A stretch of DNA of 64,000 bases, from assembly GCA_030753015.1 (NCBI GenBank), contig JASMDC010000014.1, forward strand, positions 16,440 through 80,439. Reading direction: 5' to 3'. Below are positions 37,283 to 39,145 of the stretch, piece after piece (the stretch's first letter is position 1; the number at the start of each line of letters is the position of its first letter). The translations under genes were made by a program, and so were the position numbers. This stretch comes from Candidatus Undinarchaeales archaeon (GTDB lineage Archaea > SpSt-1190 > JASMDC01). The notes under the pieces were generated by a model. The model was not told the DNA's origin. It saw only the letters and a program-made list of their open reading frames with translations, and made no database searches.

Positions 37283-39145
37283 ATGACAGGAATGTACTAT
37301 ATCCGTCTTGCTACCATTGATGAGGTCTTTCAGGTCCACCCCTTCGATCCCAACGATCCGGGACAACCCCTGCTCGAGAACTTCACACGCATCGTCGGTA
37401 GCGTCTACCACCTCTCGCGTATCTACAGGCTCAAGTCCATCGGTCTATACGTCCATTATGTATTGGAGCGGGCCAAGACCTGGGTCACCGAGGAGGAGGG
37501 CGACTACGTGCTCAACGTCGAGGTGCCCACTACCTGGACCTATCCCAGTACCGTGGAGCTGCTCTCCGAGATGGCTGCGAGCAAGTATCGCGATAACAGG
37601 ATGAAGCTCACAAAGCGGGCAGAGATGGGTATCAATCCCTTCCTCAACCAGGCCGTTTCCAGCATACAACGTATGCAGGTCTCCGAGCTACAAGGGCTCG
37701 TTGATATCCCGGATAACGTAGCACGGGCCTATATCGCCAAGCTTCGGGGTGAGCAGCAGACCCTCCTTCGTAATCTTGTTATCGGCAAGCTCCTCGCGGC
37801 GGGGAAGCTCTACGCTACAACCCAGCAGGCAGATGCCCAGCACACCGTCTGCGTCCGATGTGGGAACGTCCTTGACCTGCAGCGAAACCGCTGCCCGAAG
37901 TGTTTCTCCGCCCACCAGGGCGTGAAGTTCCAGGTCTATGTGACCGCATGGCAGGATGGCGAACCGGGAAAAGATTTCCTTGTGTTCCCGATCGAACCTC
38001 TGAAATCGATCCTCCCCAATCCCACATCCCCTCTTTTCGAGCAGACAATGCTCAAGGAGCTCGTGCTCCAGCATTTCAAGATTAGCGGGGACAGCGAGGG
38101 CTTCGTGCTCATGGACCTGGACCGCTCGCAGGAAGGGACATGGGAGCGCACTAATCTCCTACTTCACGGTCGGAGGCTAGCGCTTGTGCCCTCTGATCGC
38201 GCCCCGGACATCGACGATTCCGAGATCTACGCCCAGCTCCGTTTCTCTGATGTGTGCGCCGACTTCATCCAGCTACGGGTGACTCTCCCCGGGAACAGAG
38301 GGACCGTGGCCCACTCGGTAAGCCCGGAGACGCGCCTCGGGGACGTCGCCGATGCGGTGGTCAATAAAGCGGGGCTCAAGCTGGCGGACACCATCCTTGT
38401 TCGTGGGGGGCATCCCCTTGACCGGGAGGGGACCGTGGGCCAGGTAGGGCTCGTCAGCGGGGAAGAGGTCACCGTACAGGCCGTAGCACAGATGGCCGTG
38501 TTCATCCCAGAGATCGGGGGTACGAAACGATTCGGTGTCCCCGGGCGGATCACTGCTGCCCAGGCCATCGACCTCCTCAAGACACGATGCAATCTGACAG
38601 GTGATTACGTGCTCTCACAGGGTTCGGTATTCCTTAATCCAGATCACATTATCGATCCTGCTGCGCTCAGCAAGGGTGCGGGATTGCGTCTCAACCAACT
38701 CATCACCGTTGGTATCCAGCTCGCGGGGAACGTTCATACCATCAGTGTCTCGGCCGAGTCGACGGTCGGCGACCTGCTCAGCAATCTCAAGGTGCGCGTC
38801 GGTGTGAACGGAGTGCTCGTTGCCCAGCTCAAGGGTGCGGTCGTCCCTAGCACCACACTAATTGGTGAGCTCGATCTCAAGAAGGGACAGAACCTCGCGG
38901 CCGTGGAACGTCAGGTCAAGATGATCAACCTAACCATCTCACCGATCGAGGGAGGGAAGGACACCAAGGTATCCATAGCTGAGGACCAGACAGTCTCCTC
39001 GCTCAAAGTCCAGCTCCGTACGATGCTCGGTCTCCCCGATAGCTCACGCATGGACCTCGTTTTCGGGGAGAAGGTGCTCAAGGACGATGCATCCCTGATG
39101 GAGTCCGGTGTCGGGGAAGGCGCGAACCTCTTCCTCATGGGATAA
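37283..39145 (+). CDS. Zinc-ribbon protein with four tandem ubiquitin-like (beta-grasp) domains
   Basis: CVRCG-x9-CPKC at aa 190-207; about 72-aa repeats at aa 329-400, 402-472, 474-543 and 547-620. The last reads MINLTISPIEGGKDTKVSIAEDQTVSSLKVQL...LVFGEKVLKDDASLMESGVGEGANLFLMG. Confidence 0.8.
   Translation: MTGMYYIRLATIDEVFQVHPFDPNDPGQPLLENFTRIVGSVYHLSRIYRLKSIGLYVHYVLERAKTWVTEEEGDYVLNVEVPTTWTYPSTVELLSEMAASKYRDNRMKLTKRAEMGINPFLNQAVSSIQRMQVSELQGLVDIPDNVARAYIAKLRGEQQTLLRNLVIGKLLAAGKLYATTQQADAQHTVCVRCGNVLDLQRNRCPKCFSAHQGVKFQVYVTAWQDGEPGKDFLVFPIEPLKSILPNPTSPLFEQTMLKELVLQHFKISGDSEGFVLMDLDRSQEGTWERTNLLLHGRRLALVPSDRAPDIDDSEIYAQLRFSDVCADFIQLRVTLPGNRGTVAHSVSPETRLGDVADAVVNKAGLKLADTILVRGGHPLDREGTVGQVGLVSGEEVTVQAVAQMAVFIPEIGGTKRFGVPGRITAAQAIDLLKTRCNLTGDYVLSQGSVFLNPDHIIDPAALSKGAGLRLNQLITVGIQLAGNVHTISVSAESTVGDLLSNLKVRVGVNGVLVAQLKGAVVPSTTLIGELDLKKGQNLAAVERQVKMINLTISPIEGGKDTKVSIAEDQTVSSLKVQLRTMLGLPDSSRMDLVFGEKVLKDDASLMESGVGEGANLFLMG

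Follow-up and report, generated by a model that had tools for sequence, protein, structure and literature searches.

Introduction

USP7, Rad60/RENi and OASL carry non-cleavable tandem ubiquitin-like (Ubl) domains that serve as interaction modules, and those of Rad60 and OASL act as chain mimics. In bacteria, proteins that end in a single Gly are conjugated by the Bil and CBASS systems. Such single-Gly conjugation is also described in PMC11354881, as are the bacterial polyUbl operons and BilA, prokaryotic proteins with two to three tandem Ubl domains. Few archaea have ubiquitin domains of the eukaryotic type: of 401 archaeal genomes, 16 contain a match to PF00240. Outside the genus studied here, the best PF00240 match of each of these genomes lies in a reading frame of 64-184 aa, a few more archaeal matches occupy frames of 184-368 aa (those of 266-368 aa being single domains), and no match was found in a frame longer than 368 aa. 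A literature search that mainly covered freely available papers returned no description of an archaeal multi-Ubl array, which is no proof that none has been published.

We describe here P0001, a 620-aa protein of a marine archaeon of the Candidatus Undinarchaeales, whose C-terminal part is formed by four ubiquitin-family beta-grasp units. Its gene lies within a window of 64,000 nucleotides, the whole stretch of DNA that was analysed. The organism lives in seawater together with eukaryotes such as diatoms.

Results

P0001 is a conserved protein confined to one genus

The features of the locus are collected in Table 1. Position 38267, where an earlier note made from the sequence alone had placed the start of the array, proved to be the first base of codon 329. 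The archaeal nature of the host, also claimed there, was borne out by a ribosomal S8e in the genome and, within the window, by aCPSF1-like, AlaX and archaeosortase-like genes of archaeal type; a 16S rRNA gene was not detected in the assembly. Neither a signal peptide nor a membrane helix is visible in the sequence of P0001, and a cytoplasmic location is predicted.

Table 1. Features of the P0001 locus. Positions are those of the window.
Feature	Position	Strand	Description
Whole gene P0001	37283..39145	+	620 codons and TAA stop; ORF list, translation
N-terminal region, aa 1-180	37283..37822	+	predicted helices and hairpin; without family
C4 zinc-ribbon-like motif, aa 188-208	37844..37906	+	CxxC-10 residues-CxxC at C190/C193/C204/C207
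Candidate degenerate fifth beta-grasp, aa 214-303	37922..38191	+	proposed in the earlier note
Ubl unit 1, aa 329-401	38267..38485	+	profile, unit HMM, PDB, AF2
Ubl unit 2, aa 402-474	38486..38704	+	most divergent unit; two independent structure models
Ubl unit 3, aa 475-543	38705..38911	+	marginal by sequence
Ubl unit 4, aa 544-620	38912..39142	+	ubiquitin-family domain, ends ...LFLMG without tail
Tubulin/FtsZ-family gene P0002, 427 aa	35923..37206	-	divergent from P0001; PF00091 74.8 bits
Divergent intergenic region, 76 nt	37207..37282	.	palindrome TTAATATTAA at 37228-37237

Orthologues of P0001 are P0003 (94% identical) and the copy of a second species, G001 (91% identical). The search for wider relatives gave a single match, from the same lineage at 94%, which together with the G001 copy confines the protein to one genus. 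It follows that P0001 does not belong to a conserved archaeal pathway and that no partner can be supported by comparative genomics. The pairwise dN/dS of the whole gene against G001 was 0.117, and purifying selection was seen across every part of it in the same comparison (dN/dS 0.07-0.20, with 0.12-0.20 for the Ubl units). Contigs from RNA libraries of two studies matched P0001 and the neighbouring tubulin-like gene at 100%, DNA carry-over being possible; they amount to six short contigs from three RNA libraries, and the parts that they leave uncovered are uninformative.

The C-terminal array is made of four ubiquitin-family beta-grasp units

The array covers residues 329-620. Sequence and predicted structures indicate four beta-grasp units that follow one another without linkers and belong to the ubiquitin family of eukaryotic type. 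Support varied from unit to unit: unit 4 exceeded Pfam cut-offs, unit 1 was clear by profile, unit 3 was marginal and unit 2 was recognized in structure models only. The best-scoring Pfam family was Rad60-SLD, with 35.1 bits in the whole protein and 28.6 bits for unit 4 alone (cut-off 23.8), whereas PF00240 gave 34.0 and 32.0 bits, respectively, for the same unit (cut-off 25.4); units 1-3 individually stayed below the latter cut-off. Using a Ubl profile built from 305 Ubl domains of unrelated array proteins, hhalign recovered unit 4 (Prob 98.3, E 1.3e-14), unit 1 (Prob 90.8, E 1.2e-6) and, across 58 columns, unit 3 (E 0.0033). Unit 1 was also matched by the unit HMM (i-E 2.5e-8), and unit 3 by OTU1_UBXL (E 0.0015) and DUF348 (E 0.006). 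Searches of the PDB led from unit 1 to a redesigned ubiquitin (2mlb_A, phmmer, E 0.0017) and from unit 4 to 2kd0_A (E 2.8e-5), the Ubl of an Arabidopsis LRR+Ubl protein, while units 3 and 4 jointly aligned with ISG15 (E 0.0024). Unit 2 gave no sequence signal with Pfam-type families, with the unit HMM or with hhalign against the Ubl profile.

An AF2 model of residues 321-620, computed from 31 alignment rows, showed four beta-beta-alpha-beta-(beta)-beta units with a mean pLDDT of 86.0 (85-95 in the unit 1 block, 72-83 in unit 2, 86-91 in unit 3) and a pTM of 0.53. When it was compared with the PDB by Foldseek, the top matches were linear tetra-ubiquitins (7yui_A, 7eb9_A, 5b83_D/A) over 302-304 columns, with E values from 2e-19 to 6e-18. 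Since the alignment consisted of ubiquitin arrays, the AF2 model may be biased to the ubiquitin fold. For unit 2 this concern is offset by an independent single-sequence model from the ESM Atlas, which is also a beta-grasp and whose structural neighbours are a Raf-type RBD, a diatom ubiquitin and YukD (TM 0.69-0.76 over 69-71 residues); the Atlas feature search placed the unit with ubiquitin/Rad60-SLD clusters at 0.90-0.91. Each of the four units is thus a beta-grasp in predicted structures (AF2 and Foldseek, with the Atlas for unit 2).

The earlier note had proposed four tandem Ubl units at 38267-39145, with the last one nearest to the eukaryotic Ubl pattern, and had named as refuting outcomes repeats that do not model as beta-grasps or that group with ThiS/MoaD/TGS domains. 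Sequence, profile, AF2, Foldseek and Atlas agree on the four units, unit 2 through the structure models only. Unit 4 exceeded the cut-offs of both PF00240 and Rad60-SLD, and ThiS/MoaD was not listed for it. Modelling gave beta-grasps, with tetra-ubiquitin as the top match of the array and YukD among the neighbours of unit 2. ThiS/MoaD (PF02597) and TGS families were not listed for P0001 or for any single unit even at E<=10, a range in which the HMMER filters drop many matches above E ~0.1, so that this is a lack of signal rather than a proof, and P0001 also does not end in the C-terminal GG of ThiS/MoaD sulfur carriers.

The array carries neither cleavage sites nor a conjugation tail

No GG was found at the unit junctions or at the C-terminus, the three GG of the array all lying within units. 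The terminal LFLMG is invariant in 3/3 orthologues. P0001 ends directly after the last strand, at about ubiquitin residue 71 and some five residues short of the di-glycine position, and the PF00240 match reaches no further than position 68 of the 72 in the model. A self-BLASTP of P0001 detected no internal repeats, and hhalign of one unit against another scored no better than against N-terminal control pieces. As the units are not detectably alike, the array is not a recent precursor-style repeat, and the lack of GG at the junctions, the early stop and the dissimilarity of the units together argue that P0001 is neither a precursor nor a modifier. A polyubiquitin precursor, made of near-identical units that each end in di-glycine, was rejected on the absence of both GG and inter-unit similarity. 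A conjugatable Ubl modifier of the ubiquitin, ISG15, BilA, SAMP or Urm1 kind was rejected on the absence of a flexible GG tail and of E1, E2 or JAB neighbours. The protein has the architecture of integral (type-2) Ubl proteins by sequence and model, its unprocessed state in cells being predicted. The reading of the earlier note, an integral, non-conjugated array rather than a polyubiquitin precursor, stands: the junctions lack GG, the LFLMG end has no tail, and neither BLASTP nor hhalign sees similarity between units. Its further proposal, that such an array may serve as a chain mimic or adaptor, for instance in recruiting Cdc48/PAN, would be plausible.

E1, E2 and JAB genes, which the earlier note had suggested looking for elsewhere in the genome, are all present (contigs C68, C106, C25 and C26). 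They are located away from the P0001 contig and include, on C68, a candidate Ubl-E2-JAB-E1 operon with an apparent GG-ending small protein of its own, encoded by a small ORF that ends ...TAGG-SR directly upstream of the E2. This 185-aa ORF is a Ubl candidate by its position and its ...GG-SR end, its hhalign scores (P 0.013-0.025) not being significant. Elsewhere, on contig C26, the genome encodes a 703-aa protein with four to five Cys-less UBC/UEV-like units, a tandem inactive-E2 arrangement. The neighbours of P0001 are the tubulin-like gene, DUF1611, a GT2 glycosyltransferase and a radical-SAM gene, with no E1, E2 or JAB among them, and P0001 matched none of the PADLOC models.

We regard it as highly improbable that P0001, or units released from it, would be conjugated by this E1/E2/JAB system through the conserved terminal Gly. 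That residue is indeed Gly in 3/3 orthologues, the genome does encode an E1, a Cys-bearing E2 and a JAB peptidase, and its E1 and JAB resemble CBASS-type models. However, there is no tail past the last strand that ends at about ubiquitin residue 71, the spacers at the GG-free junctions never exceed three residues, and the operon sits on another contig with its own candidate small Ubl. In addition, the archaeal PF00240 matches examined in frames of less than 140 aa are mostly small, with GG or a single G after AST, whereas P0001 has 620 aa.

Units 1 and 4 retain ubiquitin-like surface positions

The units were aligned to a near-canonical ubiquitin unit (P0033) and read at Leu8, Ile44 and Val70, the positions of the ubiquitin hydrophobic patch. 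Units 1 and 4 are hydrophobic at the Leu8 and Ile44 positions, unit 4 also at the His68 position and, with an ungapped extension, at the Val70 position too. Units 2 and 3 carry polar residues at the Ile44 position. Because hydrophobic residues are kept at the patch positions, unit 4 and partly unit 1 would be the likeliest contact points, while units 2 and 3, being polar at the Ile44 position, may not bind classical ubiquitin receptors. In the AF2 model, at most three residues separate the last strand of a unit from the first strand of the following one, and strands of neighbouring units merge, as in one continuous strand over the unit 2/3 junction. In this the near-linkerless array differs from linear polyubiquitin, which is flexible and which its readers often grasp at the tail region.

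Taken together, these data make it probable that P0001 is an integral, uncleavable multi-Ubl docking platform, a stand-in for a linear Ubl chain. The near-linkerless junctions with strands passing from unit to unit, and the strong divergence of the units from one another, would also suit a passive stiff spacer rod that holds the zinc-ribbon module away, as Ig/FN3 arrays do, with a ubiquitin ancestry that is incidental and perhaps captured from a eukaryote. The array has its nearest relatives in multi-Ubl proteins of diatoms, which are likewise linkerless, and the seawater habitat is shared with such eukaryotes. We nevertheless consider this quite unlikely. The pTM of 0.53 is too low to establish a fixed rod, purifying selection acts on every unit about as strongly as on the rest of P0001 (dN/dS 0.12-0.20), and unit 4 retains ubiquitin-like surface residues. 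As to capture from a eukaryote, identity to the diatom proteins is only ~23%, and the free ubiquitins of archaea are matched as well, with E 2e-6 by unit 1 and E 6e-8 by unit 4.

The N-terminal module is without recognizable fold and includes the most constrained part of P0001

The N-terminal module (aa 1-328) begins with some 180 residues without recognizable fold, followed by a C4 zinc ribbon and then by another 115 or so residues. Residues 1-180 matched no Pfam or NCBIfam family, and among 1.84 billion representative proteins no relatives of the N-terminal part were found beyond its own lineage, a match to 27 residues of P0020 being spurious. The same 180 residues are the most constrained part of P0001 (dN/dS 0.066 against G001), and aa 181-213, which include the zinc-ribbon motif, show zero non-synonymous changes in this comparison. 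The motif resembled DZR, Zn_ribbon_3 and L37e weakly, with E values of 0.05-0.16 that all miss the cut-off. The AF2 model of aa 1-328, for which the alignment held two rows, had a pLDDT of 32.6 and was unusable. The Atlas search with these residues gave no usable feature match, and its structure rows (TM 0.19-0.23) were all under the bar.

A possible degenerate fifth unit, which the earlier note had placed at aa 214-303, did not hold up. Against the Ubl profile, hhalign gave Prob 1.6 over 12 columns, the unit HMM did not match, and the N-terminal AF2 model is uninformative for this segment. The sole hint was the second structure row of the Atlas search, an RA domain over residues 180-308 with a TM of 0.22 by query, which is under the bar.

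P0001 is divergently paired with a tubulin-like gene

P0002, which has four database relatives, is transcribed divergently from P0001. The AT-rich palindrome TTAATATTAA between the two genes lies in a block that is identical in G000 and G001, while the synonymous divergence of the flanking genes is ~0.37-0.44. This palindrome is a candidate shared TATA element with a putative promoter function.

Eukaryotic beta-grasp modules that work with tubulin include the doublecortin tandems and the Ubl domains of tubulin cofactors B and E. By analogy, the Ubl array or the N-terminal module of P0001 might bind or regulate the divergent tubulin-like P0002. Several observations are in line with this: the two genes stand head to head, 76 nt apart, with the perfectly conserved AT-rich palindrome between them; the arrangement recurs in the second species (G001); both genes are matched by contigs from RNA libraries; the top PDB hit of unit 4 by sequence is to the Ubl of an Arabidopsis LRR+Ubl protein; and DCX tandems are listed in the beta-grasp review PMC1949818. 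We still judge such a cytoskeletal role unlikely. The pairing is known from two congeneric species in which at least 11 genes are fully syntenic, so that adjacency weighs little. The search for related loci gave none with the tubulin alignment and one with P0040. In this locus, the single one of a more distant relative of P0002 to be compared (28% identity, in a Methanoperedens MAG), the divergent neighbour is a secreted 639-aa protein and not a Ubl. Among the 11 families listed for P0001 at E<=10 there was neither DCX nor CAP-Gly, and membership of the doublecortin tandems was rejected on this ground. A prediction of the complex of P0002 with aa 321-620, run without controls, gave scores of 0.01 and 0.00, the mark being 0.32, and weighs on neither side of the question of binding.

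Discussion

A protein that lacks a flexible tail and di-glycine should be neither cut into free units nor activated by an E1. As a docking platform, the P0001 array would thus offer a permanent, protease-proof surface for protein-protein contacts, which may be read by the ubiquitin-binding modules of the cell. Candidate readers of this surface are the products of the E2-JAB-E1 operon and the 703-aa UBC/UEV-like protein. The array might be tied to a specific client or site by the conserved N-terminal zinc-ribbon module; as this module has no recognizable fold, a role in client binding is a guess.

Extending the docking platform further, one may imagine a eukaryote-style ubiquitin "code" in a free-living, non-Asgard marine archaeon, with the operon as writers, the inactive-E2/UEV array as reader and a tetra-Ubl chain that is co-regulated, through a common bidirectional promoter, with a highly divergent tubulin and couples the latter to the readers. 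We give this rather little credence. Were it true, chain mimicry would have been either invented in archaea or acquired from planktonic eukaryotes, and a cytoskeletal or membrane system would be coupled to ubiquitin-reading machinery.

P0001 would be the first archaeal example that we found of ubiquitin folds built into a larger protein as permanent modules, a layout that is typically eukaryotic. Should ubiquitin-binding modules read the array, it would provide a tractable, uncleavable probe for archaeal ubiquitin receptors and would be relevant to the question of whether chain-like Ubl signals are older than the eukaryotes or were taken over from them. As a mere spacer, it would be a curiosity restricted to one genus.

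Among known systems, the nearest relatives of the array are the diatom multi-Ubl arrays of the P0004 family, with four units in register at ~23% identity. P0004 itself, found among 1.84 billion proteins, is the best array relative (query 330-618 against 500-788, in register, E 3.3e-21), and 7/7 of the array matches scanned carry 3-18 PF00240 stretches. Named members of this family come from Nitzschia, Mayamaea and Seminavis, and some are labelled "Polyubiquitin (Fragment)". Like P0001, the diatom arrays have a period of ~73 residues, and the two that were read fully (P0004 and P0018) have no GG at their junctions. They differ from it in having 10-18 units within 700-2,300 aa, in being eukaryotic, in their other flanks without a zinc-ribbon N-terminal module, and in the much greater likeness of the units within one protein.

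Linear (Met1-linked) tetra-ubiquitin is the best structural match to the array over ~300 residues. Unlike it, P0001 has no Leu-Arg-Gly-Gly tails or GG end, its units are dissimilar, identity is 15-16%, and the TM of the match is only 0.30-0.46, as the units are either oriented differently to one another or not placed with certainty.

Within prokaryotes, bacterial polyUbl and BilA genes share operons with E2-like and JAB-E1 genes and encode a C-terminal Gly that is exposed by processing, neither of which holds for P0001. The units of P0001 share their Pfam family with the free ubiquitins of archaea (Caldiarchaeum-type and others), and units 1 and 4 matched a profile of 15 of these with E values of 2.1e-6 and 6.4e-8. 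The best matches among the free ubiquitins occupy frames of 64-134 aa, most of them end in GG or a single G and several adjoin an E1, whereas P0001 is a 620-aa protein with a four-unit array.

The USP7 HUBL domains, the SUMO-like domains of Rad60/Esc2/NIP45 and the Ubl pair of OASL are, like the P0001 units, built-in Ubls without di-glycine, and USP7 HUBL structures occupy Foldseek ranks 7-14 for the array. Unlike these proteins, P0001 is archaeal and carries four C-terminal units in a row behind an unrelated N-terminal module.

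Four ubiquitin-family units in P0001

A Pfam scan of the whole 620-residue protein P0001 recovered Rad60-SLD (35.1 bits; cut-off 23.8), ubiquitin (PF00240, 34.0 bits; cut-off 25.4; residues 556–619) and OTU1_UBXL (33.4 bits, three stretches), and no ThiS, MoaD or TGS family even at E≤10. When the units were scanned singly, unit 4 passed the PF00240 cut-off (32 bits), unit 1 led to Rad60-SLD (E 0.032), unit 3 to OTU1_UBXL (E 0.0015) and unit 2 to no family. The proposal that unit 4 resembles ubiquitin rather than ThiS/MoaD thus held. Among PDB sequences, unit 4 matched the Ubl domain in an LRR+Ubl protein from Arabidopsis (2kd0_A, E 2.8e-5), unit 1 a redesigned ubiquitin (E 0.0017), and units 3 and 4 jointly ISG15 (E 0.0024). 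A unit profile was made of 305 Ubl domains from the array matches of P0001, the query's own lineage being left out. Against this profile, hhalign gave Prob 98.3 (E 1.3e-14) for unit 4, 90.8 (E 1.2e-6) for unit 1, 9.8 (E 0.0033, 58 columns) for unit 3 and 0.4 for unit 2, with N-terminal controls at 0.3–0.9. Sequence alone secures units 1 and 4, gives a marginal signal for unit 3 and leaves unit 2 undetected. No unit-to-unit similarity was detected within the array.

The AlphaFold2 model of residues 321–620 (31-row alignment; mean pLDDT 86.0, pTM 0.53) shows four beta-beta-alpha-beta-(beta)-(short helix)-beta units. Only 0–3 residues separate the last strand of each unit from the first of the next, and in the DSSP assignment a single continuous strand spans the unit 2/3 junction. 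The top Foldseek matches in the PDB were linear tetra-ubiquitins (7yui_A, 7eb9_A, 5b83_D/A; 302–304 alignment columns, E 2e-19 to 6e-18), followed by tri- and di-ubiquitin, the USP7 Ubl array and ISG15. Because ubiquitin arrays make up the alignment rows, and the model may lean on them, above all for unit 2 (pLDDT 72–83), residues 402–474 were cross-checked alone in the ESM Atlas, using its own single-sequence model of P0001. Structure neighbours of unit 2 were a Raf-type Ras-binding domain, which meets the Atlas bar for naming, a diatom ubiquitin domain and YukD (TM 0.69–0.76 over 69–71 residues), and the feature search returned ubiquitin and Rad60-SLD clusters at 0.90–0.91. Taken together, Pfam, hhalign, AlphaFold2 with Foldseek and, for unit 2, the Atlas model confirm the earlier observation of four predicted tandem beta-grasp units of the ubiquitin family. 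A fifth unit, suggested at residues 214–303, was not confirmed (hhalign of residues 210–310, Prob 1.6; AlphaFold2 of residues 1–328, pLDDT 32.6), the sole hint being an Atlas row to an RA domain, under the bar.

C-terminus, junctions and surface residues

The array holds three GG pairs, all within units (one in the turn between strands 1 and 2 in each of units 2 and 4, the third ahead of strand 4 in unit 1), and reading of the sequence found none at the unit junctions. The units were aligned to a near-canonical ubiquitin unit within P0033, a database match to the array. By ungapped extension of this alignment P0001 ends at about ubiquitin residue 71, some five residues before the di-glycine; the PF00240 match ends at model position 68 of 72, and the terminal LFLMG is identical in 3/3 orthologues. 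The earlier reading that P0001 is no polyubiquitin precursor, as GG is missing from both junctions and C-terminus, stands, and its sequence marks it as neither such a precursor nor a modifier conjugated by the canonical route. Conjugation by some unconventional route is highly improbable.

Positions equivalent to Leu8 and Ile44 are hydrophobic in units 1 and 4; in unit 4 the equivalents of His68 and Val70 are hydrophobic as well, and that of Lys48 is Lys. The Ile44 position is Ser and Gln in units 2 and 3, whose alignment is uncertain. That the array, for all its near-linkerless build, is just a passive spacer rod appears quite unlikely.

N-terminal region

Residues 1–328 matched no family in Pfam and other family searches and had no relatives outside the genus, in a database search and among 1.84 billion representatives. 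They include a CxxC-10 residues-CxxC motif (C190, C193, C204, C207), invariant among orthologues, with weak zinc-ribbon matches below cut-off (E 0.05–0.16). Reading of the P0001 sequence revealed neither a signal peptide nor a membrane helix.

Conservation and host genome

Orthologues were found in a metagenomic protein (94% identity) and in a second species of the genus (91%), aligning without gaps. Pairwise dN/dS against the second species is 0.117 overall, 0.066 in residues 1–180 and 0.12–0.20 in each of the four units; residues 181–213 show zero amino-acid changes. The gene is real and constrained.

The archaeal origin of the window is supported by ribosomal protein S8e in its genome (among control genomes S8e matched only the four archaeal ones) and by aCPSF1-like, archaeal AlaX-like and archaeosortase-like genes in the window. 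The assembly (3.85 Mb, 117 contigs, 98.9% complete, 5% contaminated) contains no 16S rRNA. The phylum counted 17 species-level genomes in the set used, those of the other 15 species measuring 0.6–1.2 Mb. DNA of this genome was detected in seawater and marine metagenome runs from 12 studies. Many window ORFs of 500–960 aa in this marine genome lack a family match, and a eukaryote-type glycogen synthase gene lies at 7684–9579 (+) (PF05693, E 2.6e-111).

Table. Positions of the features discussed
Feature	Position	Strand	Description
P0001 gene	window 37283..39145	+	620-codon ORF
Four-unit array	window 38267 (first base of P0001 codon 329) to stop codon	+	
P0002 gene, tubulin/FtsZ family	window 35923..37206	-	PF00091 74.8 bits; divergent from P0001 gene
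Run headed by P0002	window 29158-37206	-	four further genes, 645, 324, 959, 332 aa
Perfect palindrome TTAATATTAA	window 37228-37237		76-nt divergent intergenic region; block identical in both species
C68 gene run	contig C68, 2316-9613	+	apparent ubiquitin-like conjugation operon
C68 gene 1		+	185-aa ORF ending ...TAGG-SR; candidate Ubl
C68 gene 2		+	E2, HPN...C signature; UQ_con 45.8 bits
C68 gene 3		+	JAB peptidase
C68 gene 4		+	947-aa protein of no assigned family
C68 gene 5		+	897-aa ThiF-type E1
C68, after E1			unannotated ORFs of 289 and 607 aa
C26 703-aa protein	contig C26, 4097-6208	-	4-5 tandem UBC-fold units

Rarity and relatives of the array

Among 1.84 billion representatives, 34 proteins matched P0001 at E≤0.001. 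The best, the diatom-type multi-Ubl protein P0004, aligned its residues 500–788 to query 330–618 (E 3.3e-21, 23% identity); another, P0005, is a 40-residue fragment from P0001's own lineage. Each of the 7/7 matches scanned held 3–18 PF00240 stretches, and local phmmer gave many four-unit alignments in register, with a period of ~73 residues. P0004 has 49 relatives at E≤1e-10, among them an MMETSP transcript and named proteins from three diatoms, Nitzschia, Mayamaea and Seminavis; like P0001, it and a further match, P0018, lack GG at unit junctions. Judged by these matches, the nearest array relatives are eukaryotic.

PF00240 exceeded its cut-off in no other protein of the window's genome, and at E≤1 the unit HMM matched the P0001 frame alone among 41,900 stop-to-stop frames of at least 50 residues. 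Within the phylum PF00240 matched in 2/17 genomes, both of P0001's genus; in a 401-genome archaeal sample it matched at E≤1e-4 in 16 and over cut-off in 15. Matched open frames outside the genus span 64–368 aa (64–184 aa for the best match per genome) against 621 for P0001. Those inspected were mostly free ubiquitins with a GG or single-G end, and some longer frames were E1 proteins with a C-terminal Ubl. An archaeal free-ubiquitin profile was matched by unit 1 (E 2e-6) and unit 4 (E 6e-8). Given these matches and the 23% identity to P0004, the array could have descended vertically from archaeal ubiquitin or have been captured from a eukaryote.

Neighbourhood

P0002, the neighbouring tubulin-like protein, is the most divergent and weakest of six tubulin/FtsZ-family genes in the genome and has four database relatives only. 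None of the four further genes in its tight run has a Pfam match; visual inspection of the translations suggests that two or more of the products are secreted or anchored in the membrane, one with an acidic cytoplasmic tail. The palindrome between the divergent genes may, as a reasonable inference, be one TATA element serving both. RNA-library contigs (three libraries, two studies) match the two genes at 100% over 133–265 bases each, which weakly suggests that both are expressed. Synteny with the second species adds little, being complete over all 11/11 genes tested. For the one more distant P0002 relative whose locus was seen (28% identity, on a contig of a Methanoperedens MAG), the divergent neighbour encodes a secreted protein of 639 aa. 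That P0001 works with P0002, as their shared intergenic region might suggest, is unlikely.

DUF1611, GT2 glycosyltransferase and radical-SAM/SPASM genes lie 3' of the P0001 gene. Between it and DUF1611 is a lysine-/glutamate-rich 46-codon ORF (39190–39330, +), its frame kept in the second species with mostly silent or conservative differences.

Ubiquitin-system genes elsewhere in the genome

E1, E2 and JAB genes, which the earlier note had proposed to seek, were found together on contig C68; contigs C106 and C25 carry one further ThiF and one further JAB gene. The C68 E1 and JAB match CBASS-type PADLOC models; hhalign of the 185-aa ORF as a Ubl was not significant. P0001 is not part of this operon. 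The C26 protein matches UQ_con (81.3 bits in three stretches), UEV and RWD, and none of its UBC-fold units showed a catalytic Cys where one would be expected; it may be a multivalent reader of ubiquitin folds, and suggests itself as a candidate partner of the array. The C68 operon and the C26 protein suggest that the cell has a conjugation machinery equipped with a small Ubl of its own, and modules that may bind ubiquitin.

Interpretation

P0001 joins a lineage-specific zinc-ribbon module to an integral, near-linkerless array of four ubiquitin-family units, and is kept under purifying selection in one marine archaeal genus. As a general class of mechanism, we rather favour a permanent docking surface: the array would stand in for a chain and be read by ubiquitin-binding modules, and the N-terminal module would confer specificity. 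Recruitment of Cdc48/PAN, the example given in the earlier note, would be one conceivable form of this.

Tandem Ubl domains built into larger proteins are familiar from eukaryotes. For bacteria, PMC11354881 describes tandem Ubl proteins encoded in E2/JAB/E1 operons. Since such proteins are known from both domains, and no archaeal array of this kind was found described in the literature searched, of limited coverage, P0001 is counted as a variation on a known kind, the integral tandem Ubl protein, apparently novel, as far as that literature goes, in its archaeal host.
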